This document shows, one piece after another, positions 766-61,300 of a stretch of 64,000 bases of DNA. Location of the stretch: IMG/VR virus record IMGVR_UViG_3300033142_000627, positions 13,280-77,279 of that record, one strand, 5' to 3'. The first letter of the stretch is position 1. Each line of letters starts with the position of its first letter. The DNA is from a virus (lineage: Duplodnaviria; Heunggongvirae; Uroviricota; Caudoviricetes). Made by a program: the position numbers and the translations under genes. The notes below the pieces were generated by a model. The model saw only the letters and a list, made by a program, of their open reading frames with translations. It made no database searches and was not told where the DNA came from.

Positions 766-790
766 AAAAAGGGACCCGAAGGTCCCTTTA
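764..790. terminator. Bidirectional rho-independent terminator
   Basis: A-run, GGGACC-CGAA-GGTCCC hairpin, then T-rich tract, lying between convergent genes. Confidence 0.8.
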
Positions 791-812
791 ATAACAACAC
801 TACAGGTATTGT

Positions 813-41487: not shown

Positions 41488-41975
41488 TTACTCCACGAAA
41501 GATCAAGGTCTTCCATATATTCTTTTCTTAGTTGTATAAAGGCAGCGAATCTAGGCAGTGTTGTGATATCAAAGTCACCAACGTTATATGATAACGTCAC
41601 ATGAGGTTTATATTCATCAAAGTCATAGGTTGCGCCATGAGCATCCATCAGTTCTTGGTGTCTGTCAGTCATCCATTGTGACTCAACCTCCATCACCAGT
41701 GCGTTCTCCCCGTCTTTATTAGGCCACACATCAAATCCCTTGAAGACTGCTTGTTCTTCGATAGGACCTAAAGGGACGTAATTTTGGAGATGTTTTCTTG
41801 AGAACAACAATGTAGAATGAAAGTCATCAACACCCATAGTAGATGGAATCTTGTGTGTCTTAATGAACCATATCAAATCCTTTATAGTATCCCATGAGAA
41901 TCTAATACCTGCGTATGTTCCTTTCTGTTCCTCTGTGAGGAATTCCTTTACTGTCTTCATATTTACTAGTACCAA
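41484..41975 (-). CDS. 2H phosphoesterase (LigT / cyclic phosphodiesterase-like; candidate Acb1-like)
   Basis: Two H-x-T-x motifs, HSTLLF and HVTLSY, spaced about 70 aa apart in a 163-aa protein. Confidence 0.6.
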   Translation of the reverse strand: MVLVNMKTVKEFLTEEQKGTYAGIRFSWDTIKDLIWFIKTHKIPSTMGVDDFHSTLLFSRKHLQNYVPLGPIEEQAVFKGFDVWPNKDGENALVMEVESQWMTDRHQELMDAHGATYDFDEYKPHVTLSYNVGDFDITTLPRFAAFIQLRKEYMEDLDLSWSK

Positions 41976-44362: not shown

Positions 44363-44686
44363 TTACATCCAGCGATAAGTTTTTTCAAAGATTTCTTTAT
44401 CACAGATATATAGTTCATCATCAATTCCTCTCATAAGATAATCTCCAGGTTTGCCCTGTTTGTAATCGCCCTCAAGACTGTTAACTCTAAAATGTTCCTC
44501 AACTTGCATTGCATGAACCTCGATTGGTCTCTTCATACAAGTTGACATATCATCAACGACTTCAAATGTTTCAAATGTTTTCATACTATTTTCCTTTTCT
44601 GGGTAACAACAAGCAGAGAAATGGGTTATACCTTCTGTCGAATGACAAGAACATGTACAACCGTTATATGCGGGAGGAAGTGCCAT
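44363..44686 (-). CDS. Hypothetical Cys-rich protein (107 aa)
   Basis: CTCSCH...CC motif. Confidence 0.45.
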   Translation of the reverse strand: MALPPAYNGCTCSCHSTEGITHFSACCYPEKENSMKTFETFEVVDDMSTCMKRPIEVHAMQVEEHFRVNSLEGDYKQGKPGDYLMRGIDDELYICDKEIFEKTYRWM

Positions 44687-45273
44687 TAACTACACTTCGA
44701 GTAGTCACACTCACCATTCACACATTCCTCACAACCATCACTCTTAATAAGTGACTTCTCGCCACATACATGACACATCACAGCGTTAGGTGGGTATATA
44801 ACCTCTTTCTTCTCTGTATCTCTTAGATGTTCTTCTAAAGTGATACCAATTTCAGAGACAATAGACTTAATGTATTTGCCTTTTGACCAATAACCTCCAT
44901 TTGGGTCGACCACTGACTTGAGTTCATCAACAAGGAATTTGATATCTTCCTTATCCTCTTTACGCATCACAGCGGAGATAACTCTAGTGATAGCAGTTGT
45001 CCACTGGAAGTGAGTCGTGTCCTTTGAGTTAATAAAAATCTCAAAAGGATTTCCATCAACATCATCATTGATGGTGATATATGCTGATGCTGAACCCGGT
45101 GGTTTAATCTTATAAGTATAACCCTGTAGTTTTTCTTCTCTAACCTTTAGTACAGGTTTTACACGTTCGGCCGGTGCTGCCTCAGGCAACACCTCCACTG
45201 GTCTTAGTTTGGATTCGTCTGCATTTACTTTTAGAGAGACAATCTTTCCACTTAGTTTTTTAATTTCTGGCAT
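44686..45273 (-). CDS. nrdJ: Possible NrdJb-like C-terminal subunit of a split class II RNR (195 aa, C-terminal Cys cluster)
   Basis: Immediately downstream of NrdJa. The C-terminus CHVCGEKSLIKSDGCEECVNGECDYSKCS resembles the RNR C-terminal redox/zinc tail. Confidence 0.45.
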   Translation of the reverse strand: MPEIKKLSGKIVSLKVNADESKLRPVEVLPEAAPAERVKPVLKVREEKLQGYTYKIKPPGSASAYITINDDVDGNPFEIFINSKDTTHFQWTTAITRVISAVMRKEDKEDIKFLVDELKSVVDPNGGYWSKGKYIKSIVSEIGITLEEHLRDTEKKEVIYPPNAVMCHVCGEKSLIKSDGCEECVNGECDYSKCS

Positions 45274-45275
45274 TG

Positions 45276-47339
45276 TTATAGTTTCCCGTAGTATCCTTCT
45301 TTGATGGCGTCATATAGATTCGCCGCGGTGGTTTCTTCGCCTTCATACTCAATGATGTCATCACCTTGGAAAGTGTGTTCTTCGCCATCATCCATAACAA
45401 ATGTATATCCTGTATTCGCAAGGTCTTCTTTCTTTACCAATACCCCTTGGAAGTTTTCTGGATTGAATCTGAATGTTGTGCAACCCTTTAGATTCTGGTC
45501 ATAAGCATCCATGTAGATATCTTTAAATTCATCATAGTTAAAATCGGTTGGGATATTAACAGTCTTACTAATAGAGCTATCAATCCATTTCTGTGAAGCG
45601 GCCTGTACAGCGATGTGCTGTCTAGGAGAAATGTTGTCTGTTTCTCCCCATGTATCAGGAAGTTCTACAGATTCTCCAAACGTATGACGATACAGCAATG
45701 CTTCATAACTCCACACATCAACATTTTCCTTTGTCTTCTTTCCAGGTTTGATGATGTTACGGGTGTAGTGATGTGCAAAAGATGGTTCGATTCCATTAGA
45801 ACAGTTATTGTTAATAGATAACGCGATTGTACCTGTAGGAGCAATTGATGAGTGATGAGTGAAACGACAACCATCTTTACGAATATTGTCCCATAATTCA
45901 GGATTGGCCTTGCGAATCTTCAACATATAGTAAGAGAATACGAATAGTTCCTTACCCTTTAGTTTGTCTCCAATCTTAACTTTCTTATCACCGCCGCGAG
46001 TCTGATACTCTTCAAGCATTTTATGGTCAAGAACAAAGTCTTCTTCCATAATAGGCGCAGCACCTTTCTCAATAGCAAGTTCGTGACCAATCTTATAACC
46101 AGTCATGGCAATAATCTTAGAAACTTTCTCGGTGAATCTAACAGAAGCAGCATCACCATATGCCATACCCATCATGTTCATTGCTGAACCGAGTCCGAGA
46201 TATCCCATACCATGACGGCGTTTATGTGTGATTTCGTGTCGTTGACTCTTCAAAGGAAGACCATTGAATTCTACAACGTTGTCTAGCATACGTGTGAAGA
46301 TAGCAACAATCTCTTCAAATGCTTTCCAATCAAATGATGCGCGGGATGTAAATGCGTCTTTGATGAATCTTGTCAAGTTGACAGAACCAAGTAGACAAGA
46401 ACCGTCTTCTGGTAGAGGTTGTTCGCCGCATGGATTGGTTGCGCGGATGTTCTCACAGAACCAGTTGTTGTTCATCTTGTTCACTTCATCAATCAGAATG
46501 AATCCAGGTTCAGCAAAATCATATGTAGATTGCATGATGATATCCCACACATCTTTAGCCTTCATTGTGTCAAAGATGCGGTGTGCTACAAGATTAGTTT
46601 TCTCATCTCGTATAACATCACCTTCAACAACAGGCCAGTTTGGTTCTTTCCAAACATAGGCATCGTTCTCATCATATTCTTTCTTGTGTACAGGGAATAC
46701 AAAGTTCCAATCTTTGTTATCTTTAACGGCGTCCATGAACTCTTTGGTGATCAATAGAGATAGGTTGAATTGTCTGAATCGACCATCTTCGCGTTTCGCC
46801 TTGATAAAGTTGATTGCGTCAGGATGTGAGATATCAAATGTTCCCATCTGAGCACCTCTACGGCCGCCGGCAGAACTTACAGTGAAACACATCTTGTCAT
46901 AGATGTCCATGAACGACAATGAACCGGATGTTGTTGCGCCGACACCACCAACATGAGCGCCGCCTGGACGTAACACAGAGAATTCATATCCAATACCACA
47001 ACCCGCAGCGAGTGTAATGCCTGCTTGTTTGACACCTTCGAGAATTCCTGGCATCGAGTCTTCGATTGTAGATGATACTGTACAGTTGATTAATGATGTT
47101 GCTGGTTTATATTTTGATGCACCAGCGTTTGAGATGATGCGCCCAGCCGGTGTCGCGCCGCTTCGCAAGGCATATAAAAATGCTTCTTGCCAGGTGTCCT
47201 TTGACTTCTCGTTGGAAGCTAATGCAGCTGCAACTCTTAGAAAGGTTGCTTCGATATCTTTATCGATAATGTTTTCGTCTTTGTCTTTTAGTCTATACTT
47301 TTTATCGTATATGTCAAATGATGCTGGTTGTAAATCCAT
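45276..47339 (-). CDS. nrdJ: Class II (B12-dependent) ribonucleotide reductase large fragment NrdJa
   Basis: ATNPCGEQPL...CLLGSVNL active-site signature. Length 687 aa from the ATG at 47339; the listed 47438 start overlaps the upstream gene by 91 nt. Confidence 0.8.
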   Translation of the reverse strand: MDLQPASFDIYDKKYRLKDKDENIIDKDIEATFLRVAAALASNEKSKDTWQEAFLYALRSGATPAGRIISNAGASKYKPATSLINCTVSSTIEDSMPGILEGVKQAGITLAAGCGIGYEFSVLRPGGAHVGGVGATTSGSLSFMDIYDKMCFTVSSAGGRRGAQMGTFDISHPDAINFIKAKREDGRFRQFNLSLLITKEFMDAVKDNKDWNFVFPVHKKEYDENDAYVWKEPNWPVVEGDVIRDEKTNLVAHRIFDTMKAKDVWDIIMQSTYDFAEPGFILIDEVNKMNNNWFCENIRATNPCGEQPLPEDGSCLLGSVNLTRFIKDAFTSRASFDWKAFEEIVAIFTRMLDNVVEFNGLPLKSQRHEITHKRRHGMGYLGLGSAMNMMGMAYGDAASVRFTEKVSKIIAMTGYKIGHELAIEKGAAPIMEEDFVLDHKMLEEYQTRGGDKKVKIGDKLKGKELFVFSYYMLKIRKANPELWDNIRKDGCRFTHHSSIAPTGTIALSINNNCSNGIEPSFAHHYTRNIIKPGKKTKENVDVWSYEALLYRHTFGESVELPDTWGETDNISPRQHIAVQAASQKWIDSSISKTVNIPTDFNYDEFKDIYMDAYDQNLKGCTTFRFNPENFQGVLVKKEDLANTGYTFVMDDGEEHTFQGDDIIEYEGEETTAANLYDAIKEGYYGKL

Positions 47340-47347
47340 GCGGGCTC

Positions 47348-47701
47348 CTATTTTTGGTTCCAATATTTGGGTTTCTTTAAACAATTTTGAACAACTTCCC
47401 ATCCGCCCAATTCGTGCGTCAAGGTACATTGTGAACAATCTTTTCTTTTTACTCCTATCGGAGATTCAATAACTTCATAGTTTCCTGGACATTGTAGAAA
47501 TGCCAGAGGACAGTAACACATCAAACAATTCTGTTCTTGTCCTTCTTTTACATTGTGACAAGGATAGAACTCACACTCCTTATGAGAGAACCATTTATAC
47601 TTCTCAGTTTCAACGGTGTCTTTGGGTTCTACTCTTATCTTCATATATGGTACATTATATAGGTTGATGGGCGGGAATGTAAGGTCCGGCCAATTAACCA
47701 T
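47348..47701 (-). CDS. Cys-rich metal-binding protein (117 aa)
   Basis: FYPCHN...CLMCYCP...CPG...CSQC motif. Confidence 0.45.
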   Translation of the reverse strand: MVNWPDLTFPPINLYNVPYMKIRVEPKDTVETEKYKWFSHKECEFYPCHNVKEGQEQNCLMCYCPLAFLQCPGNYEVIESPIGVKRKDCSQCTLTHELGGWEVVQNCLKKPKYWNQK

Positions 47702-47894: not shown

Positions 47895-48959
47895 CTAAAC
47901 CTTTCTCCACTGATTAAATTTAGATAATCCCATTAAACCACTGAAAGCATTAGAGATTAAATATTCTGTTATTTTTTCTGGCGACCAATGATGATTCAAT
48001 ACAATATCATTGATATCTTCTCCAGTCTTAAATTTCTTGTTCCATAGTACTACTTTATGGCCGGATTGTAAAGACTTTTTCACTTTATCTACGATTGCCG
48101 TGTTTCTGGCGTCATTATCATACACCATGATGGCATCAGGGAACAAATCCATATACGACTCCAGATTGGAACCAGTGGCAGCGATGGCATTGTTCACGAA
48201 TAGAGAGTTGAGTGGTCCTTCGAGAAGGAGGATTGGTTTGGATTCGTCCACGGTGTCTAATCCGTAGATTTTAGGCATCTCATCATCAATTTTGATAGTG
48301 ATATACTTTGCTTTTGATTTAGGATTGAATGAACGACCTTGCATTGCGAACATCTTACCTTCCTTATCAAAGAACGGTATGACCAGTCTTGGTGTGTCGT
48401 ACTTTGTTGATTCAAAGGAACCACGTTTACAGAAGTTTGCGTAATCTTTGAACTTGTTTGTGTAGTATAGTCTATCGAGATATGGTTCAAGGCCTCTTTC
48501 ACGACAATATATTTTTGCTGGGTGATTATCATCAAGTCCAGATACTTTACGAACAAAGTTGTCTACCAGTAGATGATTGTATGTCTTATCAGATGTGAAG
48601 TCTAGGGCATGAGACACAAATGTTGGTTTCTGGTTCGCGAATACAGAATCATCGTCTTCTTTTATTGTTACTCTTTTCTTTGGAGCTCCGAATGACTCCT
48701 TGACGTATTCATTATATAGTGTATGGTCAATCTTCTTTAGGAAGGCACCAAACGGTAGAGATTCATTACATCTATAACAACCAGAGAACACCTGTCCTTT
48801 ATATATTTGGAAGTTGCCTCTAGTTACGTCAAGTTTATCCTTAGAGTCCCCACATATAGGGCATCGAAATGCCCATACGTCTTTCTTGACCTTATGGAAC
48901 TTCTCCAGTTTATGCGAAATCTTGTGTATATACTGGGTGTCTAGGAAAATGTCGCTCAT
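47895..48959 (-). CDS. 61: DNA primase gp61
   Basis: N-terminal zinc ribbon FRCPICGDSKDK. TOPRIM LLEGPLNSLFV...AIAATGS. About 354 aa, as in T4 gp61. Confidence 0.9.
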   Translation of the reverse strand: MSDIFLDTQYIHKISHKLEKFHKVKKDVWAFRCPICGDSKDKLDVTRGNFQIYKGQVFSGCYRCNESLPFGAFLKKIDHTLYNEYVKESFGAPKKRVTIKEDDDSVFANQKPTFVSHALDFTSDKTYNHLLVDNFVRKVSGLDDNHPAKIYCRERGLEPYLDRLYYTNKFKDYANFCKRGSFESTKYDTPRLVIPFFDKEGKMFAMQGRSFNPKSKAKYITIKIDDEMPKIYGLDTVDESKPILLLEGPLNSLFVNNAIAATGSNLESYMDLFPDAIMVYDNDARNTAIVDKVKKSLQSGHKVVLWNKKFKTGEDINDIVLNHHWSPEKITEYLISNAFSGLMGLSKFNQWRKV

Positions 48960-48988
48960 AATGTAGTAATAAATAAATTCAAGTAGTA

Positions 48989-49192
48989 TTAGTTATGTTT
49001 GGAGTAATTGCTTAATCGCGCTCCATCTTGAAACCCAGAGGATTTAAAATGAAGATGTTCTATATATTTTGTGTGGCCACATTTGTTACACTTAACTACA
49101 TGGTGGGACTCAGTTTTGATAATGTTTCCACACTCACAAATAACAGTGTTAGTTATAACACCCTTATCAACACCAATAGACTTTAATATCAT
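48989..49192 (-). CDS. Small zinc-ribbon protein (start revised to MILKSIG)
   Basis: CECG...CNKCGH motif. The listed start would overlap the plus-strand gene by 44 nt. Confidence 0.4.
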   Translation of the reverse strand: MILKSIGVDKGVITNTVICECGNIIKTESHHVVKCNKCGHTKYIEHLHFKSSGFQDGARLSNYSKHN

Positions 49193-49589
49193 GTTTAACT
49201 CCGATAATTTTGAAAAACCATTAAACAGTAACACATATCTTATATATGCCGCGAAGAACTATCACAATAAGTTTTGTAACGGCCTTGATGAATTCACACA
49301 GGATATCAAAACTCTATCTTCAATCAAAAGATCGTTGAGAAAGTATTCTAAAACTGGTGACATTAAGTTACAATTGACACTTAATCACATCATTACGTTC
49401 AGGAACCTCTTTGGTTCAATACAAGCTGGACGTATATTATTCTATTATTGTGACACTTTTACATATCCGGCGCTCAAGACACTGCTTACTTATCTTGAAT
49501 GCTGTCCTGCGGATATTCCAGAGGTAGATATAGCTAACATCAAGTATGATGATCATTTGATAGACATAATTCGGACTTACAATAAATAA
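49191..49589 (+). CDS. Hypothetical protein (132 aa), first gene of the plus-strand operon
   Basis: ATG at 49191 (MFNSDNFEKPL). Opposite strand to its neighbours. Confidence 0.45.
   Translation: MFNSDNFEKPLNSNTYLIYAAKNYHNKFCNGLDEFTQDIKTLSSIKRSLRKYSKTGDIKLQLTLNHIITFRNLFGSIQAGRILFYYCDTFTYPALKTLLTYLECCPADIPEVDIANIKYDDHLIDIIRTYNK
49582..49588 (+). promoter_or_regulatory. Late-promoter-like ATAAATA core
   Basis: caATAAATAataac sits 40 nt upstream of the ATG at 49628. Confidence 0.3.
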
Positions 49590-49627
49590 TAACATTATCA
49601 AACACTTTAGTCAAGAGAATATCTAAA

Positions 49628-50146
49628 ATGGGTCTACTTCAATCACTCGCAGCATATAAAATCATAAAAGCTCTTGCCACGCCGTTTCCTAAATGGCCTG
49701 CATACAAGCTTGGTTTGATTGACGACAAAGGACGTACACTCAGAGAACCAAAGACCAAAGAAGAGAAAGATTCTCTATCTCTATTCGACAGGGTCATCAA
49801 AAACGTAAAGAAACTCATCATGAGAGCTCCTATGGGTTCATTTGCTGTTGGTTCACTCATTGTTGCACTAAAGATTCTCAAAGAAGATGCCGGGCATGAT
49901 GTTACTGATATTGTACTTGAATACCTAGATGATAATGGTATTGTTTTACAACTGAATGAGGATGATAACTCAAAAGAACCTTTCTGTCAAGGCAAATACA
50001 TAGATAATCTATCAGAGAAGATGTTTATTGTCAAGGAAGAGTTATTCCCTTGTGATATCATCATGGGATGCCCAGTTTACGAGGTTACAGATGTGGTTGG
50101 TAAAGACGTATTATTCGTCACAAGAGATAATGTAAGAATGGTATGA
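49628..50146 (+). CDS. Hypothetical protein (172 aa)
   Basis: Plus-strand operon ORF. Confidence 0.5.
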   Translation: MGLLQSLAAYKIIKALATPFPKWPAYKLGLIDDKGRTLREPKTKEEKDSLSLFDRVIKNVKKLIMRAPMGSFAVGSLIVALKILKEDAGHDVTDIVLEYLDDNGIVLQLNEDDNSKEPFCQGKYIDNLSEKMFIVKEELFPCDIIMGCPVYEVTDVVGKDVLFVTRDNVRMV

Positions 50147-50167
50147 CAAGATCCGTACCATAATTTG

Positions 50168-50174
50168 ATAAATA
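50168..50174 (+). promoter_or_regulatory. Late-promoter-like ATAAATA core
   Basis: tgATAAATAataat sits 27 nt upstream of the ATG at 50201. Confidence 0.3.
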
Positions 50175-50200
50175 ATAATAAGATTTAATAGGAATAGTAA

Positions 50201-50791
50201 ATGAAGTCGTTTAAAGATTTTGGCAATCACCAAGAATTCTCTCTGGAGTTGAATAACATTATTGAATTAATGGAATTTGAGAAGATGGGAGTAGATACCC
50301 TAACAGAGGAAACACTGGACGAATTTAAGATGCCTGATATAACCGGCGCATTGAAGACCGCTGGGTTCCATGTAAAGAAGGGACGAGGCCTAATGCAAAT
50401 CATTGCTGCTTCTGGTACCCATATGGCGAAGATTCTATACCATGCTGTGAAGGCAGCGAAAGGTGATGAAGCTTCCGTCGCAGAATTAAAGAAATTACTA
50501 GCAAAGAAAATAACCAAAGAGGACATCATTGATGTTCTTTTAAAGATTGACCAATTAACATTACACGCATTGACTGGTCCTATTCATGCGATTGAGGCGA
50601 TTACAGGTTGGCATATTGCAGCTGCGATTAAGAATGTAAGAAAGGTCAGTGATGATATCAAGCAGAAGGTTGTTAATGTCATTGATACCTTAAAGACACT
50701 CGCAAAGAAGGTTGATAAGGCCATCGCGGCAAAGGTGACCTCTTTGACAACCGATATTTCAAACACATTCAAAGATTATACGGTAGCATAA
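50201..50791 (+). CDS. Candidate head internal protein with a capsid-targeting-like N-terminus (196 aa)
   Basis: N-terminus MKSFKDFGNHQEF resembles the T4 internal-protein leader MKTYQEFIAE. Ala/Lys-rich helical body. Confidence 0.4.
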   Translation: MKSFKDFGNHQEFSLELNNIIELMEFEKMGVDTLTEETLDEFKMPDITGALKTAGFHVKKGRGLMQIIAASGTHMAKILYHAVKAAKGDEASVAELKKLLAKKITKEDIIDVLLKIDQLTLHALTGPIHAIEAITGWHIAAAIKNVRKVSDDIKQKVVNVIDTLKTLAKKVDKAIAAKVTSLTTDISNTFKDYTVA

Positions 50792-51282
50792 TGAGATCAT
50801 TTAAGAAATGGGTAGATGATAATGTCATCGGCAATATTGTTTATTATATCGACAAGGGCGATAATGTAGATAAGATTGTTAAAAATATTAATAGTCATAC
50901 TGGTACCAATATGAAGAAGATGTTGAAAAAGTCTTTCTCAAGGATGAAACCAGAAGAGGTTTCAAAAACAACATATGATAAACTAAAACGTATCGTATCA
51001 TTGGTAGAAGAAGCATCAACAACCGTCGCAGGAGTCTCAGGAGGACCCGGTGGTTCGTTTGAACCTCACGGCATGGCATTCGGTAAGCCTTACTTTGATG
51101 TATGTCAGGACACCTTCTCAGCATGTTACAAAGGTGGCAAAGAACATCGTAAACATTGGTTAAAGAAACTAGGCAATACGGAATCATCACATCTGATTCG
51201 TAGATGGACGGCAAAGAATCCCGGCAAACAGTTTCTATTGAAGTTGAAAGACCAGAATCAATGGGTTAACGGTAGAGCATAA
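50791..51282 (+). CDS. Candidate internal protein (163 aa) with a similar MRSFKKW N-terminus
   Basis: Same M-[KR]-S-F-K N-terminal pattern as the preceding gene. ATGA coupling. Confidence 0.4.
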   Translation: MRSFKKWVDDNVIGNIVYYIDKGDNVDKIVKNINSHTGTNMKKMLKKSFSRMKPEEVSKTTYDKLKRIVSLVEEASTTVAGVSGGPGGSFEPHGMAFGKPYFDVCQDTFSACYKGGKEHRKHWLKKLGNTESSHLIRRWTAKNPGKQFLLKLKDQNQWVNGRA

Positions 51283-51605
51283 TGATACTAAAACCTAAAA
51301 CGACCATTTTACTATCAGAGATAGGCATTAGCGCTCTGATGATTGCAAGTTGTTACATATTCCTTGTGGATTACATTAGTCTCAGAGAAGACAACGAAAT
51401 AGCCATGGAATATATTGAAAATTTCAGAACTGACCACGGTTCAATGAAAATAGAACTTCAAAATAAAATTAAGATAGTTGAACACAGCTCAACGAAATTA
51501 AAAAATAGTAAATTACTATACGATGGAAGAATAAGTCGAATCAAGGAACTAGAAGAAAGAATAAAATCACTTGAGAAGACGGCACTTTCTAATGACGGAA
51601 CTTAA
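51282..51605 (+). CDS. Membrane-anchored coiled-coil protein (107 aa)
   Basis: N-terminal TM helix then a heptad-like region. Confidence 0.45.
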   Translation: MILKPKTTILLSEIGISALMIASCYIFLVDYISLREDNEIAMEYIENFRTDHGSMKIELQNKIKIVEHSSTKLKNSKLLYDGRISRIKELEERIKSLEKTALSNDGT

Positions 51606-52170
51606 TAAAAACGATAAAGCGAACGACAACAATCAACAAAATATTTTCAATGACTTGCAAAAGCAAATTAAAGTATTAGAAGATGAACTCGTTGCGGTCT
51701 CAAAAGGAGATAGCGTATCAACCAAAGATGTTGTGAAAATAAATCGTCTTGTTAAATCTATATGGTCTCTGGCCAGTATCTTTCTCGCCTTGGTGTCCTC
51801 AACATCCTATATATACATAGAATCAAAAAGAGCACTAGATGCGATTGAAGAAAATAACACAGCAATCGTTGAAATAAGAAAAGAAGACAAAAAGGTATTA
51901 GAACTTGTCAAAAAAGCTTTAGAAAAGAACGACGAAGAATTATCAAAAATAATCAATATCAAAGTTGATGATAGATTATCAGATTTGGTAAAGATAACAA
52001 AAGAGGCCGCCGACGATGCGAAGGATTCCAGAGAGTTGGTTGAGGAATCTGCTCAGGCAATGGCAGGAATGAATGACTCTGTGAGAGCTAACTATAAAGA
52101 ACTTCTTAGATATAAGAAAGAGGTTACTGTTAGACTACAAAGAATCGAAAAGAAGTTAAAAGCTAAATAA
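51589..52170 (+). CDS. Coiled-coil protein with a central TM segment (start revised to MTELNK)
   Basis: Heptad repeats. Hydrophobic stretch IWSLASIFLALVSSTSYIYI. Confidence 0.45.
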   Translation, partial: LMTELNKNDKANDNNQQNIFNDLQKQIKVLEDELVAVSKGDSVSTKDVVKINRLVKSIWSLASIFLALVSSTSYIYIESKRALDAIEENNTAIVEIRKEDKKVLELVKKALEKNDEELSKIINIKVDDRLSDLVKITKEAADDAKDSRELVEESAQAMAGMNDSVRANYKELLRYKKEVTVRLQRIEKKLKAK

Positions 52171-52173
52171 ATA
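52167..52173 (+). promoter_or_regulatory. Late-promoter-like ATAAATA core
   Basis: aaATAAATAcac sits 34 nt upstream of the ATG at 52207. Confidence 0.3.
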
Positions 52174-52206
52174 CACAAAATAAGAATCGACAAATGAGAA
52201 TCGAGA

Positions 52207-52662
52207 ATGAATTTATTAAAAGCAATAACTTTATGTTTTGTGATAAGTTTAGCTGGCAAACCATCAATAACACAGGCCGAGTTTTCCATACAACAGAACG
52301 AACTGGTAGGACCAGTACCTACTAAAGATACAAATTCATTCATCACTCAATATGAACTATATAACATATTCAGTTTTAATGAGACAGAAAGTTGGAACGG
52401 AGGTCGTATTGTGGTTGTAATGTTCGACATACACTCTAGGGAACACAAGAATTTTGTAAAAGATACCATTCTGTATCCTTGGAAGTCCTATATGAAGTAC
52501 GCTGAACGTAGATACAAGTCAGCTGATACTATTATTGTTAAGAACTATAGCGAGATGATAGAAGCAATCACATACAACTTGGGTGCTATTGGTTACTTGC
52601 CAAAAGGTAGTGTGTTGTACAATAGCAAACATAACGGAATTGTAGAGGTGAAGATTAGATAA
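52207..52662 (+). CDS. Secreted protein (151 aa, signal peptide)
   Basis: Signal peptide MNLLKAITLCFVISLAGKPSITQA. Confidence 0.5.
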   Translation: MNLLKAITLCFVISLAGKPSITQAEFSIQQNELVGPVPTKDTNSFITQYELYNIFSFNETESWNGGRIVVVMFDIHSREHKNFVKDTILYPWKSYMKYAERRYKSADTIIVKNYSEMIEAITYNLGAIGYLPKGSVLYNSKHNGIVEVKIR

Positions 52663-53363
52663 TGCCCGATTCATACATATATAAAATGGCGGATAAACAC
52701 AACGTAACTGTGGACAGAACAGAAGAGTTGTGGTTCAAAGCAAGAAAACTTGCTGCAGAGGCAGGTCACAAAGACGAATATGATTACATTACAGGAATAT
52801 TTAAGAAAATGATAGGCGAAGAGATGAACGAAGATTACTGGTCAGACTTTCCAGAAAAGATTGACGATAAGAAAGTACAACTATTCTTGGGTCGTATGCA
52901 ACCTATCCATAAGGGACACGATGCAATCATTAAGATGATGAAGAATCCAGTCGTTGTTCTTGTAAAAGGAAAGGAGTCTTCAAAGGACAAGTCAAGGAAT
53001 CCACTGGACGCGAAGTATCAGACCAAGTTGATACACAAACTCAACCCTAGAGCGATGGTCATTGTGGCGAAAACTGGTTACATTCCAGACACTATCTCAT
53101 TACTACGTGACCAAGGACTTGATGTTGATTTAGTATTAGCAGGCAACGACCGCATTGGTTCATATAAGAAACAGATTGATTCAGCGAATAAGAAACTTGA
53201 TGACTGGCAACAAATGGAAGTTAAGTATAAGGAAACGCCTAGAATTACATCAGCTACAGATGTTCGTAACGCTATTAAGAGTGATGACAGAGAGACATTT
53301 GAAAAGCTTGTCCCTAAGAAACTTCATTCTGAATGGGACAAACTACGCAAACTGGTTAAGTAA
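52662..53363 (+). CDS. NadM-type nicotinamide-mononucleotide adenylyltransferase-like protein (HxGH cytidylyltransferase fold)
   Basis: LFLGRMQPIHKGHDAII matches archaeal-type NMNAT GRFQPFHKGH. C-terminal ITSATDVRNAI matches the ISSTxIR motif. Confidence 0.6.
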   Translation: MPDSYIYKMADKHNVTVDRTEELWFKARKLAAEAGHKDEYDYITGIFKKMIGEEMNEDYWSDFPEKIDDKKVQLFLGRMQPIHKGHDAIIKMMKNPVVVLVKGKESSKDKSRNPLDAKYQTKLIHKLNPRAMVIVAKTGYIPDTISLLRDQGLDVDLVLAGNDRIGSYKKQIDSANKKLDDWQQMEVKYKETPRITSATDVRNAIKSDDRETFEKLVPKKLHSEWDKLRKLVK

Positions 53364-54416
53364 TTAGAACTTAATATTGTTATCGAAAGAAACTAAAGGT
53401 TCTACTTGTAGAAAGTCCATAAGGTTCTTGTAACTTTTCTTTACCCAAGATATAATCTTCATTATAATGGACTTAATGAATGATTTTGCCTTGTTGAATA
53501 TATCTGCGATTACGCCTTCTGTTAATGCATACTCTGGAATATCATCGATATCTTCTTGGAGTTTATCCACAATAAGACCTACAACAGACCAGTAACGGTA
53601 GTTCCCTGTCTTCTGTTTCTTTCCATCAATAACTTTCTTCTCTGAACCAGACTTGAAGCGTACAGACACCTTCATCTTCTTTGCGATAGATGAAACGTAT
53701 GCCTTATCATTAACAGGTACGTGATGAATCTTTGAACCATCCCATGTTACAACAAGGAAACTTGAACAAGCACCATCGTTGCCACCAAACTTAACATCTC
53801 CTGACATTGCTTCATACGCAAATGCATCTCTGAACGATTGGTTGGTTGAGAAAACCTTGGTCAACTCTCTCATCAGGTCTTTATGTACAGCATCGGCCTG
53901 TTTAACAAGTTCGTCTTTGCCGCTTTTTATTGCTGCGCGTAGATTCCCTTTTGTTACTCCTGCTGGAGACAACTGGTCAAATCCTTTTCTCAAGGTATCA
54001 GAAACTTTCTTATCGACACCCTTTAATTGATTCGCAGCGGCGTAGAATGTTGCGCGGGCCTCATTACGACCACCTGACATTAATTGTGCTGCTTGTCCCG
54101 TCTTGAGAGATATCTTATCCGAGCCGATGACGATATCAGTCTTAGGAGTCTTTGTGCCGCCTGGAACCTTACCTTCTGGCCAGTATGTTGACCACTCTTT
54201 AGTAACAGGCATAGTGGAGGCGCCAAGAGAAGAGGCTTTGCCTGACTCGCCTTTACTCTTCAACTCAGCAACAATCTTTTCAACGTTCTCTTGTGTGATA
54301 CGTTTATCTGTTATATCACTAGGAATCTCTTGACCATTCCATACCGCGATAATGGCATTCTCCATCTGTATACCAGGAGATGCTGCTTCGTTAATATATT
54401 CTTTGAAACCTTTCAT
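53364..54416 (-). CDS. Hypothetical protein (350 aa, Lys/Gly-rich)
   Basis: Long ORF with no recognised motif. Confidence 0.5.
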   Translation of the reverse strand: MKGFKEYINEAASPGIQMENAIIAVWNGQEIPSDITDKRITQENVEKIVAELKSKGESGKASSLGASTMPVTKEWSTYWPEGKVPGGTKTPKTDIVIGSDKISLKTGQAAQLMSGGRNEARATFYAAANQLKGVDKKVSDTLRKGFDQLSPAGVTKGNLRAAIKSGKDELVKQADAVHKDLMRELTKVFSTNQSFRDAFAYEAMSGDVKFGGNDGACSSFLVVTWDGSKIHHVPVNDKAYVSSIAKKMKVSVRFKSGSEKKVIDGKKQKTGNYRYWSVVGLIVDKLQEDIDDIPEYALTEGVIADIFNKAKSFIKSIIMKIISWVKKSYKNLMDFLQVEPLVSFDNNIKF

Positions 54417-54700
54417 TATTTACCAACTTTTTTAATGTTCTTATCAATGAATTTTTTAACATCTTGGCGTTTAACTTTGTCTTTGAAAGCAGGTTCAAAA
54501 TCATGTTCACCAGTTTTCATATCCAAATATACTGTCCAAATATTGTAATGATTTCCGTTCTCGGCCTTGGCACCTACCAAGTATATATCTCCCTTCACTT
54601 GTCGAACATACTCAACAACATCTGTATCAAATACATTTGACTCAAACCATTTTACATCTTTCTTTATGGATTCGTTCAAGAGTTGTTTTACTGTTTTCAT
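54416..54700 (-). CDS. Hypothetical protein (94 aa)
   Basis: ATGA-coupled to both neighbours. Confidence 0.45.
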   Translation of the reverse strand: MKTVKQLLNESIKKDVKWFESNVFDTDVVEYVRQVKGDIYLVGAKAENGNHYNIWTVYLDMKTGEHDFEPAFKDKVKRQDVKKFIDKNIKKVGK

Positions 54701-55941
54701 TATAGTCTCCAGACCAGATTTGTTATTTGGTTAACAGGCGCGAATACACCAGTGAATTTGAGTAGTTCGCCTTTGTAGAAGAATGTAATGCCTTCTGTAG
54801 GCATAAGATTCTTTATTCCACCAAGAGCATCTAATTTCTTTAGTTGTGCATCAAGCGTCTTTTTCAGACCTTCGTTATCCGAGGCCTTAATCTTGTTAAC
54901 CGAATTCCACATATTGTCAGCAATCTTCTGCATAGACTTATCAGGATTAACGGTCATCATTGAAGAGATGGTCTTCATCAACTCTGTACCAACACCAAGA
55001 AATACATTCTCGATAGGGTGCATCATCTCTTTCCATACCTTCTGCATAGACTTGTCAATCTTTTGAATCCAAGACTTCAACTCTGGTACCAGTTTATAGA
55101 TACTAGTGATGGTCACAGACTTGTCGCCATGCGCCCATCTGTTAACCAATGAGGTATGTACATCATCAGGCAACGATGTCTTCTTGATCACGTTGTTGAT
55201 TATGTAGTTTCGTTTATATGTAGAAAGTTTATCTGAATTCTTTACACCTTGAGACTTCATAATCTTATTGAGTTTGACAAGGTACTTGTCTGTACGTTTC
55301 TTGTGGTCTTTCATTGCACCAACTTTGACCTTAGATAGACCTTTCATTTCGAAACGCTTTCCTTTGTCCAGACCTTTACCACGTAGAATCTTCTCAAGAT
55401 ATCTGCCGTCTGATTGGTTCAACTTAGAAATAGGGTTGCCGTCTTCGTCCAGTTCGATAGTGCCGTGGAAACGAATCTCTGATACACCGTAGTGTACGAT
55501 GTTCTCATTCTCTGGTACCATAACCTCAATAGAAATCCACTTGTGACCTTCATTGAAGAAATATTCTTTGTCGGCCGGACTAAGTTGTGACATTGCATGT
55601 GATAGTTCATTCATCACATCAGAGTATGCTGTAAGTAATGCACCACGACCGGAGAACTTGGCAACAATTCCTGCTTTATCCAGTGCGTTCTCACCAAAGT
55701 TCTTTTGATGACCCTTATTACGAGAGGCGATTAACTTATTGTTTTTCCAAGAGAACATCAGGTTTTGGCCATCGGTTTTCTCTGTGACTTGTTCAAGTCT
55801 ACCTTGAAATGCTCTTACAATGATGCCTTTGATTTCGTTGAATGTGAAATCAATATCATATGGATGCGAAAGGTGACCGAAACCACCGCCTTCTGATAAG
55901 GTATGGGTTTCATTGTATTCTTTGAATCTAAGCACACACAA
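54700..55941 (-). CDS. Covalent nucleotidyltransferase of the ligase superfamily (third ligase-like protein; KxDG motif I)
   Basis: EKTDGQNLMFSW is a ligase/capping-type motif I. Downstream ISIEVMVP and FEMKGLSKVK resemble motifs III/IV and V. Confidence 0.5.
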   Translation of the reverse strand: MCVLRFKEYNETHTLSEGGGFGHLSHPYDIDFTFNEIKGIIVRAFQGRLEQVTEKTDGQNLMFSWKNNKLIASRNKGHQKNFGENALDKAGIVAKFSGRGALLTAYSDVMNELSHAMSQLSPADKEYFFNEGHKWISIEVMVPENENIVHYGVSEIRFHGTIELDEDGNPISKLNQSDGRYLEKILRGKGLDKGKRFEMKGLSKVKVGAMKDHKKRTDKYLVKLNKIMKSQGVKNSDKLSTYKRNYIINNVIKKTSLPDDVHTSLVNRWAHGDKSVTITSIYKLVPELKSWIQKIDKSMQKVWKEMMHPIENVFLGVGTELMKTISSMMTVNPDKSMQKIADNMWNSVNKIKASDNEGLKKTLDAQLKKLDALGGIKNLMPTEGITFFYKGELLKFTGVFAPVNQITNLVWRL

Positions 55942-56023
55942 CTCCTATAAATGAATAAAGGCATCGGGGTGGTGGCAACCCCTGAGTACCTTCCTAATAT
56001 AGTTATTTATGTTATCTTACCGT

Positions 56024-56666: not shown

Positions 56667-56936
56667 TTATCTAATGAAATCCCAGTAATCCATAGGTTCT
56701 ATACCTCTTGGCATATCATCAATCCAATCATCAAACGCCTGCATTTCCTTTTTAGATGCATGGTCATAAACAATATCCGTAGCTTCTCCCCACTCACCAT
56801 CCTCAAGAGCAACAGATAATTCATGTGAGTCATTTGTTTTCTTAATCTTTTTGATTAGATTAAAAATAATCTTTGGTATATCTTTTTTATCAGCGCGCTT
56901 AACGGCCTCGTTAAGGAATTCTTTTGTTGTTTTCAT
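56667..56936 (-). CDS. Hypothetical acidic protein (89 aa)
   Basis: Packed ORF. Confidence 0.45.
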   Translation of the reverse strand: MKTTKEFLNEAVKRADKKDIPKIIFNLIKKIKKTNDSHELSVALEDGEWGEATDIVYDHASKKEMQAFDDWIDDMPRGIEPMDYWDFIR

Positions 56937-56940
56937 TTAT

Positions 56941-58023
56941 CTACCTTATCATTTGTATGTCGTCTGTATGTATATTATCCAAAGACCATACTTCAAGGTC
57001 CTTTTTTAATCTATCCTCAGAACGAAGTTTTTCCCAACGCTTTACAGATTTCTTTTTCCATATCGATATCATCTCTTCGCTAGATTTACTGATATTGTTA
57101 CAGTAATAGTAATTCTTCTTGGTTGTTATATTAGACTTCGTTTTTATCATATTAGAGAATTCATGGTATTTATCTATATCATGATGTTTTAATGAATTCT
57201 TTATTGTCCTGATAAGGCCATTAAATCTCTTTGTCTTTACTGAACTTGAGTTGACCGTTATGTTGACAACATGATTACCTTCATTCTCGGATTTGATGAT
57301 AATTGTTAACTTTTTGATAACATCATCAGAAGGGTACATCATCAGGTTTGAATCAGTTCTTACCTTAGACCTCTTTATAATGGGTTTAAGTCCATCGTAT
57401 TGAGAAGACTGTTTAATGGAACCATATAGACTGGTCGTTTCGAAGTATTGTATATCAGTGTCATACTTGTTGTTGAAACGGTCTCTTATGTCTGTAGATG
57501 CCGCTATTAGTGCAAGTAGTTTGCCGCCGAGATAGTTAAAACCAAACGGTTGAACCGGCACGATTACGATGCCATTATAGAAGGTACGGTTCAATTCTTC
57601 TGGTTTTATGACATAATCCAACATCGTGTTACGAGGTTTCATATTGATTGTCGGGGAAGACATCTTAATAAAACCTAATAACTTTTTCGTGTTGTTCTCC
57701 CACACCTTAACACACAATGACCGACCCGGAGTGGGCCCGACGACAAACGACGAAACGTATTGTAACTGATTATAATACTCTCTGTTCTCTGGTGTATACT
57801 CTAATCTAATGTCCATATCCATTGGAGACATATCATAATCATTAAAATATATATCAGAATACATGTGATTACCAAAAATGTCATAGGATTCCATATCTAA
57901 TAACTTGATTCCTTTTCTAATTCTTTGGTATTGTTCTATATCAGTAATATCAGCGTAAGCATCCATTAATATATCATAACACCTAAGTGTGTTACGTTCG
58001 GACAATATTAGTTTATCTACCAT
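56941..58023 (-). CDS. Unknown-function protein, paralogue A of a tandem pair (360 aa)
   Basis: About 60% identical by eye to ORF 58344-59570 over the whole length. Confidence 0.55.
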   Translation of the reverse strand: MVDKLILSERNTLRCYDILMDAYADITDIEQYQRIRKGIKLLDMESYDIFGNHMYSDIYFNDYDMSPMDMDIRLEYTPENREYYNQLQYVSSFVVGPTPGRSLCVKVWENNTKKLLGFIKMSSPTINMKPRNTMLDYVIKPEELNRTFYNGIVIVPVQPFGFNYLGGKLLALIAASTDIRDRFNNKYDTDIQYFETTSLYGSIKQSSQYDGLKPIIKRSKVRTDSNLMMYPSDDVIKKLTIIIKSENEGNHVVNITVNSSSVKTKRFNGLIRTIKNSLKHHDIDKYHEFSNMIKTKSNITTKKNYYYCNNISKSSEEMISIWKKKSVKRWEKLRSEDRLKKDLEVWSLDNIHTDDIQMIR

Positions 58024-58343: not shown

Positions 58344-59570
58344 TTACCTTATCATCTGAATTTTGTCACCAAGAACCGTATCTAGATCCCAAATCTCAAG
58401 TTCTGTACGAATTCTATCATCGGCTGCAAGATTGTCATATCGTCTTTGTGCCTTGCGTTTCCACCAAACAACCATTTCTTCAACGCTCTTATTAATGTTG
58501 TTGCAGTAATAGTAATTCTTTTTGGTAGTAATCTCCTTCTTCACAGCAAGGAACTCTTTCAAGTGGTCGTGTTTCTCCATATCATGTACCTTTAGAGAAG
58601 CATATAGACGCGAGAACATACCGTTCATTCGTTTCAACTTGACAGAACCACTATTTGCCTCTACGGCGTGTTGACCATTATTCTCGCTCTTGAAGATTAA
58701 CGCCATCTTTCCGAGAACTTCATCGGATGGGTACATCATAAGATTTGAATCTGTTTGTGCCTTACAACGGCGAATCATAGGTTTCAGACCGTCATACTGT
58801 GAAGACTGTTTGATTGATCCATATAAGCTGGTTGTTTCAAATGTCTGAATGTCAGTACCATATTTCTTATTGAACATATCACGTACATCAGTTGAAGCAG
58901 CGATTAACGCCATCAGTTTACCACCAAGGGCATTATAACCGAATGGTTGTACAGGTACAAGAATGATACCGTTATAGAACGTGCGATTCAATTCTTCGGG
59001 TTCAACGATTCTATCCATCATCACATTACGAGGTTTCATATTGAGAGTAGGTGAACCCAACTTCATAAATCCAAGTGTCTTGCCTGTGTTCGCCTCAACA
59101 GCGCGTAGGTGCAAGGTACGACCCGGTGACGGTACAATCGCCATAGAGGACACTACTTGTATCTGTTCATAGAAATCTCTTGAGGAGAGTTCTTCCACGC
59201 GGATTTCCATATCATCTGGACGCATATCATAGTCATTAAACAGAATATCGTCATACCATTCCGTACCATCGATAGACTGTGAAGAACCGGTCTTCATCAA
59301 CATCTCAAGTTTACGGAATCTCTGATATGATTCAATGTCGTGAAAGTTTGAGTAGTAGTCAATAAGAAGTTTATAACAGGCAATTGCCTTATCCTTAGGG
59401 AGAATCAACATCTCGCCTTCTTTTCTATCAGATTCGAATAACGCCTGTGGTTTTTCTGGTTGGTCCGGTTCTTTGTCCGGACGTTTGAACTTTCCTACTG
59501 TACTCTCTTTCTCAACGGCAAGGTCTTCGCCGAATAAATCTTGTGAACTCATAATATTTCCCATAATCAA
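58344..59570 (-). CDS. Unknown-function protein, paralogue B of the tandem pair (408 aa)
   Basis: Shares the blocks NRTFYNGI..VPVQPFG.N.LGGKL.ALIAAST and TKKNYYYCNNI with paralogue A. Extra 48-aa N-terminus. Confidence 0.55.
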   Translation of the reverse strand: MIMGNIMSSQDLFGEDLAVEKESTVGKFKRPDKEPDQPEKPQALFESDRKEGEMLILPKDKAIACYKLLIDYYSNFHDIESYQRFRKLEMLMKTGSSQSIDGTEWYDDILFNDYDMRPDDMEIRVEELSSRDFYEQIQVVSSMAIVPSPGRTLHLRAVEANTGKTLGFMKLGSPTLNMKPRNVMMDRIVEPEELNRTFYNGIILVPVQPFGYNALGGKLMALIAASTDVRDMFNKKYGTDIQTFETTSLYGSIKQSSQYDGLKPMIRRCKAQTDSNLMMYPSDEVLGKMALIFKSENNGQHAVEANSGSVKLKRMNGMFSRLYASLKVHDMEKHDHLKEFLAVKKEITTKKNYYYCNNINKSVEEMVVWWKRKAQRRYDNLAADDRIRTELEIWDLDTVLGDKIQMIR

Positions 59571-59866: not shown

Positions 59867-61300
59867 CTAAACTATAAAGTCATCAAAAGGATTTCCGTCC
59901 TTCTTATTATCACCGAACATCAATTCCTGTCCAGCACCAAATGTTGGTTTATCCGCTATGGTTTTCCCATCAGTAGTTGAGGCACCCATCATCGTACCGG
60001 CAGTATCATCAAGGTCATAGAATCGCATCTGTTTGAAATCAACACCACACATAAACTTATTGGTGCTGGATATATCATAGAAACGGTTCTTCAACTGTTT
60101 GAACATCACCTTGCCCTGTTCGCGTAGCTCTTCTGTAGAAATCATACCAAAGAAAGTATCAACAGTATGTAATAGACCGGCTGATTCTGATACATCAGAC
60201 ATTTCCATATCAGAGGCATTTAGTCCACCACGATTAACCTGTGTAGCACTAACAATAGGACAATTATTCTCAATTGCGAATCCACGAAGTTCTTCTGCGA
60301 TACTCTTAACAAGTGTGTACGAGTTTGCGCCTTTTGCTGCACGACTTGAAGAACAAATATTAAGGTAATCGATAAAGATAATATCAGGCACAAAGTTCTG
60401 TTTGGTCTTTAGTTCTCTAACAAGATGTCTAAAGTGACCAACATGTGCCGATGTGGTAGGATATTCCTTAATCATCAATCGACCAGCGCACTTCTCTTTT
60501 ACATCTTCGACCTGTTTGAGATACTTGTCTCTATCGATGCCGTGTAGTTTATTAAGGTCGACCTCTAAGAGATTGGCGTCGATACGTTCACCAATTCTTT
60601 CTTCGGCCAACTCTAATGAGATGTATAGAACATTCTTGCCCTGTAAATACAACTGACTACCGATATGAATCATAATGGCAGACTTACCAGAACCGGCTCC
60701 GCCCATGAAAACATTCAATGTCTTGTCAACAAAACCACCACGGGTTACCTTATCAAGATAGTGTAGACCAGTGGCCAATCTATCTTCTTTCAGGTGTAAC
60801 AAATCGTAACGCGCATCAGCATCATTGATATAGTCGTGACCTACAGAACTATCAAACGAAACACTCAAGGCATCTTGTAGCAGTTCAGGTATGGCACCTT
60901 TGTCCATATCTTTCTTCTCACCATTGATAATGGCGATAGCAGTTTCAACAGACCTGTGAACGGCACGTTCAGAACAGAATTTCTCCGTTTCGTCCCTTAA
61001 CCATTCTGAATTAGGTTTTTCTTCCGTAATGATTCTATACGAATCGAGTCTTGTTACTATTTCTTTGTATTCATCTTCGGTAATATTTTTACGGTCACCT
61101 ACCTGTACAATGATAGACTCTATTGTAGGTACATCATTATACTTTTCAAAGAAGCCTTTGTATTCTTCAAAGATAACCCTATATTGATCATCAGAGTAAT
61201 ATTCATCCTTTAGATACGGTAGAACATCTCTTACATAGGCGCTATCAACGAATAGATTCTTGAATAGTACATCTTCAAAATCTATATCAATCAATAACAC
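59867..61300 (-). CDS. 41: Replicative DNA helicase gp41 (DnaB family)
   Basis: Walker A GGAGSGKS. The N-terminus aligns with T4 gp41. GTG start preceded by an AAGGAGA SD. Confidence 0.9.
   Translation of the reverse strand: MLLIDIDFEDVLFKNLFVDSAYVRDVLPYLKDEYYSDDQYRVIFEEYKGFFEKYNDVPTIESIIVQVGDRKNITEDEYKEIVTRLDSYRIITEEKPNSEWLRDETEKFCSERAVHRSVETAIAIINGEKKDMDKGAIPELLQDALSVSFDSSVGHDYINDADARYDLLHLKEDRLATGLHYLDKVTRGGFVDKTLNVFMGGAGSGKSAIMIHIGSQLYLQGKNVLYISLELAEERIGERIDANLLEVDLNKLHGIDRDKYLKQVEDVKEKCAGRLMIKEYPTTSAHVGHFRHLVRELKTKQNFVPDIIFIDYLNICSSSRAAKGANSYTLVKSIAEELRGFAIENNCPIVSATQVNRGGLNASDMEMSDVSESAGLLHTVDTFFGMISTEELREQGKVMFKQLKNRFYDISSTNKFMCGVDFKQMRFYDLDDTAGTMMGASTTDGKTIADKPTFGAGQELMFGDNKKDGNPFDDFIV

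Follow-up and report, generated by a model that had tools for sequence, protein, structure and literature searches.

The internal proteins of phage T4 are injected as a first line against host defences, and to our knowledge such proteins are known almost exclusively from the T-even coliphages. In the T4 record, the start of internal proteins II and III (IPII and IPIII) reads MKTYQEFIAE↓A and that of IPI MKTFKEF...ITE↓A, where the arrow marks the end of the leader. This capsid-targeting sequence (CTS) has been defined and its removal by gp21 described (PMC8442874). T4 gp21 cleaves after Glu, for example at ITE-6 and LTE-619 in Alt, and cuts gp22, gp67 and gp68 into fragments (PMC5694885), and the T-even phages carry variable internal protein (IP) loci (PMC3012670, PMC12373910). 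Here we analyse a 64,000-nucleotide stretch of an IMG/VR virus record (IMGVR_UViG_3300033142_000627, positions 13,280 to 77,279; hereafter the window), the source of which is an uncultured, divergent marine T4-like myovirus. Our subject is a block of eight co-directional plus-strand open reading frames (ORFs), g1 to g8, which lies at 49191-53363 amid minus-strand genes in the interval between primase and helicase. An earlier note on this DNA had described the block as an inserted late-type operon with internal-protein-like leaders and an NMN adenylyltransferase (NMNAT) of the NadM type; the ORF listing agrees with the gene layout it gave, and the translations agree with the start sequences it reported, MKSFKDF for g3 and MRSFKKW for g4. 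We conclude that the block is probably a conserved late module with a new family of head-interior proteins, and not an inserted NAD-biosynthetic operon.

A parallel with the IP loci of T-even phages holds in part. The leader, M-K-(S/T)-(F/Y)-(K/Q)-(E/D)-F, the candidate (L/I)-x-E site that follows it and the basic products are all like those of the T4 internal proteins, and in relatives the locus holds variable small leader-bearing ORFs, as T-even IP loci do. The g3 family, on the other hand, is widespread and conserved instead of hypervariable, the putative propeptide of g3, at 36 residues, is longer than those of IPII and IPIII (10) and of IPI (19), and g3 sits adjacent to the primase region on the opposite strand. 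We found no literature linking the pelagiphage HTVC008M or the cyanophages to capsid-targeting sequences.

In the explanation that we favour, transcription of the block would be driven by late promoters of the T4 type, whose ATAAATA cores lie at 48969, 49582, 50168 and 52167. The product of g3 would be made late and directed by its MKSFKDF... leader to the prohead scaffolding core, where a gp21-type prohead protease would trim it after the L-x-E at residues 34-36; the remaining His/Trp-rich all-alpha domain would then be retained inside the head, as part of the core or for ejection with the DNA. Since g4 is translationally coupled to g3 and its leader is of the same kind, its product is probably an internal protein, small and basic, while g5 to g7 would be envelope-directed proteins and g8 an HxGH nucleotidyltransferase. 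Taken as a whole (a conserved inverted late block, a head-targeted and trimmed g3, and a g4 that is likely an internal protein), we hold this reading to be fairly probable; its timing, targeting, cleavage and virion presence we infer from gene content, conservation, motif statistics, family features and context.

Layout and conservation of the block

The divergent layout, with the primase on the minus strand and g1, g2, g3, g4 and further genes on the plus strand, is shared by five related metagenomic contigs (L003, L004, L005/L006 and L011), with amino-acid identities of 40-74%. All eight genes and a ninth are present in L004; L003 and L011 have five plus-strand genes immediately before the helicase; and L005/L006 keep g1-g4 and g7, but their orthologue of g8 lies beyond the block and is a minus-strand gene. 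No relative was found that has an intact primase-helicase junction and lacks the block. Furthermore, the two genes nearest the primase are normal T4-like primase neighbours. The g1 product scores 91 bits against the Pfam model DUF7207, for which the gathering cut-off is 27, and has homologues in 487 phage records, mostly of cyanophages. The g2 product matches phrog_18642 (E 5e-26) and phrog_2086 (E 2e-20), and by tblastn 574 phage records, including RB43 '61.1', KVP40 and HTVC008M AGE60475; T4's own 61.1 has only 54 aa, and the assignment of g2 rests on the annotated 61.1 relatives and not on T4 61.1 itself. In HTVC008M and P-SSM2 the counterparts of g1 and g2 lie immediately upstream of the primase and on its strand, and in T4 the entire uvsX-40-41-...-61.1-61 stretch is on a single strand. 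Because the layout recurs and g1 and g2 are native, we take the block to be accessory genes of the phage's own that were inverted long ago and that vary at the distal end. Gene order and family membership, then, mark the block as a part of the gp41-gp61 accessory region of marine T4-like myoviruses that is inverted and conserved in this lineage, and the proposal that it had been inserted does not stand.

AT and GC skew change sign precisely over g1-g8; the GC content of the block is unremarkable, with no anomaly. Given the positions of its flanks, the block occupies just 4.2 kb of a primase-helicase interval of 10.9 kb, and 6.5 kb of minus-strand accessory genes separate g8 from the helicase gene gp41. 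The primase of the window is at most 38% identical to cyanophage primases, and a megablast search with 47-56 kb of the window found no nucleotide-level relative among GenBank phages. For some window genes the nearest relative is HTVC008M, as for the minus-strand ORF m350 (51%).

At the left boundary of the block the Zn-ribbon ORF and g1 diverge from start codons that overlap head-to-head in CATG (49190-49193), which leaves no room for an intergenic promoter, and this overlap is kept in L004 (at about 9015), where the Zn-ribbon orthologue is 68% identical. At the right boundary the convergent operons abut at 53361-53366 with zero spacer, the TAA of g8 being followed directly by the complement of the m350 stop; there is no terminator-like hairpin at this junction, and no structured RNA of Rfam was matched in 47.5-57.5 kb of the window. 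In L011 g1 and g2 are separated by an inserted 242-aa ORF of the opposite orientation (456-1184, minus strand), which has repeated Cys-pair motifs and looks like a homing endonuclease.

Late-type promoter cores

T4 late genes are usually found on the strand opposite the others, a pattern that the orientation of the block fits. The ATAAATA cores reported at 49582, 50168 and 52167 are exact matches, and a further plus-strand copy lies in the gap between primase and Zn-ribbon ORF (Table 1); transcription from there would cross the Zn-ribbon ORF in antisense. The cores upstream of g2, g3 and g7, which share the 7-bp ATAAATA with the gp55-dependent late promoters of T4 (TATAAATA), lie 26-39 nt from the start codon. 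In the window the motif also precedes homologues of gp32, DNA ligase, endolysin and a homing endonuclease, and the T4 counterparts gene 32, lysozyme e and homing endonuclease have late promoters; T4 gene e shows two TATAAATA under the identical upstream test.

The number of copies in the window is at chance level, both for ATAAATA (19, with 20.3 expected) and for the full TATAAATA (5, with 4.85 expected). Their placement is far from random: 14 of the 19 are followed at 5-90 nt by an ATG on their own strand, as against 17% for 20 other 7-mers of identical composition (p = 9e-8). Of these 14, ten belong to the minus strand, and the motif is thus not special to g1-g8. The late-type character claimed for the operon is therefore credible in the placement and conservation of its cores, but ATAAATA does not single the block out.

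Conservation among relatives points the same way. A plus-strand ATAAATA is found upstream of g1 in all four relatives with enough upstream sequence, at -220 in L004, -186 in L003 (as TATAAATA), -38 in L005 and -35 in L035; L011, which offers only 83 nt upstream of g1, has none. For the core upstream of g2, L004 and L005 have AATAAATA at a comparable distance and L003 has CATAAATA; for that upstream of g3, L003 and L011 have TATAAATA and L004 and L005 have CATAAATA. These g2 and g3 cores are thus kept across L003-L005 and L011 even though the proteins have diverged by about 50%; the g7 core at 52167 is not kept in L004 or L005. Across the wider g3 family, 18 of 37 genes carry NATAAATA in the 110 nt before the start, as a perfect TATAAATA in eleven cases, compared with 21% of other ORFs of these loci (Fisher p = 3e-4), and the motif typically stands 23-47 nt from the start. 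Scans for sigma-70 promoters and terminators returned background levels only. As the cores are non-randomly placed and kept upstream of orthologues, it is plausible that the block is expressed late from ATAAATA cores.

The only other sizeable plus-strand gene of the window (33376-34038) is a homing-endonuclease-like ORF (phrog_314) with ATAAATA 68 nt upstream, which recalls T4's late-promoter-driven homing endonucleases.

Leaders, the g3 family and the remaining genes

The capsid-targeting-like leader seen on g3 is borne out at the level of the family. Its MKSFKDF start is nearest to MKTFKEF...ITE↓A of T4 IPI, and the consensus of 91 aligned members is M-K-(S/T/K)-F-K-(E/Q/D)-(Y/F)-(I/L). A word-indexed search returned eight orthologues, and an exhaustive profile search at least 259 clusters at 50% identity, mostly of 180-200 aa and none of them annotated; a peptide-pattern scan of IMG/VR using g3 alone gave no match, and the family alignment later succeeded. 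The search for an (L/I)-x-E cleavage motif behind the leader had a mixed outcome, with none at residues 8-10 of g3 and a family-wide one at residues 34-36 (L-T-E), where position 34 is L/I in 88% and position 36 is E in 97% of members, followed by G/A/S in 70%. Glu36 is the sole near-invariant residue among the first 50 and falls in a lower-confidence stretch of the model, and two conserved (L/I/V)-x-E motifs are present within the first 36 residues. The C-terminal domain of 160 residues is well conserved (H122, H129, W137 and D117 are invariant or near-invariant) and is modelled as a compact fold, in an AlphaFold2 (AF2) model that is all-alpha with a pLDDT of 79.

The sole cultured carrier of the family is the Paraglaciecola phage PANV1 (Paraglaciecola Antarctic GD virus 1), in which the g3-family gene GD1_8 starts MKSYQEFLVE and the gene order runs portal, gp67-like (GD1_6), gp68-like (GD1_7), GD1_8, gp21 protease, gp22 and gp23. 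Two IMG/VR contigs, L045 and L047, have a PANV1-like head-operon order. The family gene is hence found in a core operon, directly between gp68-like and gp21, in the company of the T4 gp67/gp68 type; it differs from these by lacking sequence or profile similarity to gp68, by being an additional gene and no replacement, and by its globular all-alpha domain. We considered whether GD1_8 occupies the gp68 slot, but PHROG typing makes GD1_7 the gp68-like gene and GD1_8 an extra one. Elsewhere the g3-family gene adjoins uvsX, primase or DUF7207/61.1, mostly outside the head operon. From these family features, we consider that g3 is probably a prohead-core or internal head protein, and most likely a late, leader-targeted and protease-trimmed protein of the head interior.

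The leader of g4 behaves as a module. The g4 start overlaps the g3 stop (ATAATG), and its product consists of the MRSFKKW leader, an insert of roughly 65 aa and a conserved basic C-terminal domain, with a candidate cleavage site, L-V-E, at residues 72-74 immediately before the domain. MRSFKKW is a weaker match than the g3 leader; orthologues start MKSFKDHLEE and MMKTFKKFNEE, and in these short forms (L011, MKSFKDHLEE↓DV; L003, MMKTFKKFNEE↓V) the leader of 10-11 residues abuts the domain. The window and L004 forms have the insert of roughly 65 residues between leader and L-(V/I)-E junction, and the L005 form begins at the domain without any leader. Present, absent or split off by an insert among orthologues, the leader therefore appears to be a separable module ending at a Glu before the domain. 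A word-indexed search with g4 matched only itself, and the homologues described here were recovered from the loci of relatives; the conserved domain also occurs at the N-terminus of HTVC008M AGE60477. Additional small leader-bearing ORFs follow g3 in L003 (MMKTVQEFLSE) and L011 (MKTITEYLKE).

The most canonical leaders of 10 residues belong to the minus-strand neighbours m350, m94 and m89 (Table 1), which the earlier note overlooked, together with the minus-strand copies of ATAAATA. The m350 family comprises more than 413 clusters; its leader, M-K-x-F-K-x-Y-I-x-E↓G-R-S-R, is exactly 10 residues long, ends in (I/L)-x-E↓(G/A) and is modelled as disordered, and the fold predicted for m350 is restriction-endonuclease-like. 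The leader of m350 speaks for a use of such sequences in this phage. A repeated DNA cassette behind the shared leaders was rejected, as both upstream regions and codons differ. Since the leader-bearing genes differ in DNA, the likeness of the leaders seems to be selected at the peptide level.

Genes 5 to 7 had been described as two membrane or coiled-coil proteins and a secreted one, which is clear for the transmembrane (TM) segment of g5 and is consistent with the signal-peptide-like start of g7, and is marginal for the hydrophobic segment of g6, which is flanked by charged helices. The g5 product has a weak match to phrog_22697 'membrane protein', the L004 orthologue of g6 is 49% identical, and the g7 orthologues in L004, L005 and L006 likewise begin with hydrophobic leaders. 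None of g4-g7 has an informative Pfam match even at E = 1. In the corresponding helicase-primase interval T4 encodes the periplasmic Spackle. Identification of g5 with T4 gp40 was discarded, there being no alignment.

The nature of g8 is narrower than had been proposed. Its HxGH (GRMQPIHKGH) and ISxT-like (TSATDVR) motifs are conserved in the family alignment, and it matches PF01467 and phrog_3041/395. Judged by these motifs and matches g8 is an HxGH nucleotidyltransferase, and as HxGH and ISxTxxR are common to the whole superfamily they do not define its substrate. Archaeal, NadM-type NMNAT models are the top-scoring named models, and g8 resembles that type in both motifs and in a compact domain of about 165 residues; however, the scores fall far below the family cut-offs (NF002243, 28.4 bits vs 127; TIGR01527, 24.5 vs 181), and only residues 74-128, about 55 in number and the N-terminal third of the domain, align. 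With the g8-family profile, phosphopantetheine adenylyltransferase (PPAT) aligns over about 150 residues, the full length of the domain, and NMNAT over 55-60 at similar E-values (PPAT about 4e-7), so that PPAT is an equally good match. The NMNAT identity claimed for g8 is therefore not established. Its phage homologues are inconsistently annotated, and the large ORFs of the window showed neither a Nudix domain nor a partner of NadV size.

Homologues of g8 provide a further link between this interval and the virion. In the cyanophage S-SZBM1 a g8-family cytidylyltransferase (S-SZBM1_140) was detected by liquid chromatography-mass spectrometry (LC-MS) in CsCl-purified virions, and the helicase-primase interval encodes virion-detected proteins, this family member included (PMC9146016). 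The S-SZBM1 homologue, encoded between helicase and primase, starts MRFRQFIIE↓A; those of Syn9 (gp184) and P-SSM2 (T4-GC190) start MKKFSAFLSE↓A and MKSFSQFLTE↓T. The catalytic domain of g8 shares its PHROGs and the helicase-primase interval with the cyanophage virion protein, but the latter has a leader and a long C-terminal extension, and g8 begins with a different, separate module (residues 1-57) and no leader. Packaging of the window's own g8 is consequently not supported.

Table 1. Positions of the block, its candidate promoter cores and neighbouring genes in the window.
Feature	Position	Strand	Remarks
ATAAATA	48969-48975	+	AATAAATA; candidate late promoter for g1, in primase/Zn-ribbon gap
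ATAAATA	49582-49588	+	39 nt upstream of g2
ATAAATA	50168-50174	+	GATAAATA; 26 nt upstream of g3
ATAAATA	52167-52173	+	33 nt upstream of g7
ATAAATA	56004-56010	-	CATAAATA; upstream of m413-m94-m350 operon
g1	49191-49589	+	DUF7207 (PF23837)/phrog_407, cyanophage T4-GC198; conserved
g2	49628-50146	+	homologue of T4-type 61.1 family, phrog_18642/2086
g3	50201-50791	+	all-alpha, from a large family with no annotation; may be a prohead-core or internal head protein
g3 predicted propeptide	50201-50308	+	residues 1-36, ends L-T-E
g4	50791-51282	+	basic, 163 aa, MRSFKKW leader; candidate small internal protein
g5	51282-51605	+	small; N-terminal TM segment at residues 9-29, charged helical tail
g6	51592 (or TTG 51571)-52170	+	charged helical; marginal central hydrophobic segment at residues 53-76
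g7	52207-52662	+	signal-peptide-like N-terminus; export predicted
g8	52662-53363	+	N-terminal module (1-57) and HxGH nucleotidyltransferase domain (about 70-233)
DNA primase gp61	47895-48959	-	left flank
Zn-ribbon ORF	48989-49192	-	67 aa; left boundary of block
m350	53364-54416	-	convergent neighbour; leader MKGFKEYINE↓A
m94	54416-54700	-	small ORF; starts MKTVKQLLNE↓S
m413	54700-55941	-	413 aa; probable GTG start giving MLRFKEYNE
m89	56667-56936	-	small ORF; starts MKTTKEFLNE↓A
Replicative helicase gp41	59867-61300	-	right flank, beyond accessory genes
UvsX	61543-62586	-	beyond helicase gp41

Several other genes of the window are of note. The minus-strand ORF m413, which has no family match, carries a KxDG-like motif (EKTDGQN) and is preceded by a GC-rich hairpin and the CATAAATA at 56004. 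At 41484-41960 (minus strand) lies a homologue of Acb1, the anti-CBASS 2H phosphodiesterase (match to PDB 7T26, E = 1.5e-21), with a 13-residue N-terminal extension, MKTVKEFLTEEQK, which is missing from the crystallised chain; its relatives start similarly. A paralogous pair of phrog_19197 occupies 56941-58023 and 58344-59570 (both minus strand), and for the L004 orthologue of this pair there is a precomputed Pfam match to DruA (PF14236), a domain named after the Druantia defence protein. The region 44686-47438 (minus strand) encodes a ribonucleotide reductase large subunit (720 aa) and then a separate 195-aa ORF, whose L004 orthologue has a TSCPD-domain match; this reductase is not like the cyanophage nrdA/nrdB, although L003 and L005 do have nrdA and nrdB.

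Alternatives and meaning

A number of observations weigh against the late, head-targeted reading of the block. In these phages ATAAATA already precedes 21% of ORFs as background, the octamer begins with A, A, G and A at the four plus-strand sites where T4 late promoters have T, and neither the late sigma factor gp55 nor gp33 was identified in the 64-kb window. The window likewise contains no prohead protease gene, the head genes lying outside it; such head genes are present in PANV1, L045 and L047, which carry members of the g3 family. For g3 itself, residues 8-10 hold no L/I-x-E, and the proposed site lies 36 residues from the start and is followed by Glu and not by G/A/S. Residues 4-28 are modelled by AF2 as a confident helix, and for that reason the conserved N-terminal motifs could be structural; the model as a whole has no informative fold match, and neither T4 gp68 nor gp61.2 could be equated with g3 (hhalign probability about 0.1% for both). 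The strict leader pattern matches only 35 of 158 scanned proteins (the g3-family representatives and the g4 self-hit), and the L007 homologue has none. Lastly, T4 Acb1 (57B) starts MMEFKDF, and in L004 the Acb1-homologue segment is internal to a fusion protein; we know of no packaging of T4 Acb1, and as Acb1 homologues share it, a bare xFK(D/E)F start is not diagnostic alone.

These same observations can be arranged differently. The product of g3 might be a disposable component of the prohead core or scaffold, fragmented and expelled at maturation as gp67 and gp68 would be. The position of the family gene inside the core operon of PANV1, L045 and L047 and the two conserved (L/I/V)-x-E motifs are what such a role would call for, given that gp21 fragments gp22, gp67 and gp68 (PMC5694885); its conserved compact domain, which sets it apart from gp67 and gp68 with their acidic or basic sequences of low complexity, and the location of the gene outside the head operon in most phages are not, and we regard this version as unlikely, though worth keeping in view. 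It could instead be that the leaders do not target at all, MK-x-F-K-x-F being a translation-friendly helical start common in AT-rich phages and L-x-E a structural feature, and that the block encodes late cytoplasmic or envelope proteins, with g5-g7 acting for example in lysis or superinfection exclusion. The similar starts of T4 Acb1 and its homologues, the fair model confidence of the g3 N-terminal helix, and the predicted membrane or exported nature of g5-g7, with T4 Spackle in the matching interval, would all agree with this. We nevertheless find it decidedly doubtful, since the leader genes differ in DNA, which argues for peptide-level selection, the m350 leader is exactly 10 residues and modelled as disordered, the g4 leader is separable and absent in one orthologue, and both the head-operon context in PANV1 and the presence of a leader-bearing cyanophage enzyme in virions (PMC9146016) speak for targeting.

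The proposal of the earlier note, in which an inserted late operon would deliver injected anti-restriction internal proteins along with a NAD-making NadM-type NMNAT, draws on late-type cores and leaders that are indeed present, and on NMNAT models that score best among named models for a g8 with both HxGH and TSATDVR. It fares poorly, however, on the layout kept in five relatives with native T4-like g1 and g2, on NMNAT scores below cut-offs over about 55 residues when PPAT fits the full length, on a g8 without a leader whose L005/L006 orthologue is a minus-strand gene outside the block, and on the missing Nudix or NadV-sized partner among large ORFs, and so appears to us improbable. More improbable yet is an early or middle operon in which ATAAATA would merely be AT-rich intergenic sequence: the chance-level total, the first octamer base and the background level of sigma-70-like matches would suit it, but the highly non-random placement against composition-matched 7-mers, the retention of orthologous cores at 40-60% protein identity and the opposite-strand orientation usual for T4 late genes would not. 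It is the reading of g1-g8 as a conserved late block with a head-targeted, trimmed g3 to which we therefore return.

If this reading is true, the logic of targeting and trimming known from T4 would be conserved in distant and ecologically dominant marine T4-like phages (HTVC008M and cyanophage relatives), and two unannotated protein families would be head cargo, that of g3 (259 clusters or more) and that of m350 (over 413). A broader and more tentative possibility is that pelagiphage-like marine T4-like phages use capsid targeting and the prohead protease far more widely than T4 does. The m350 family, the HxGH nucleotidyltransferase, g3, g4 and possibly Acb1 would in that case be pre-made cargo co-injected with the DNA, and the primase-helicase interval a hyperplastic 'internal-protein locus'. 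Looking forward, the leader MK-x-F-K-x-(F/Y) followed by (L/I)-x-E would provide a mining rule for injected effectors in metagenomes, and targeting of this kind would account for the enzymes in cyanophage virion proteomes.

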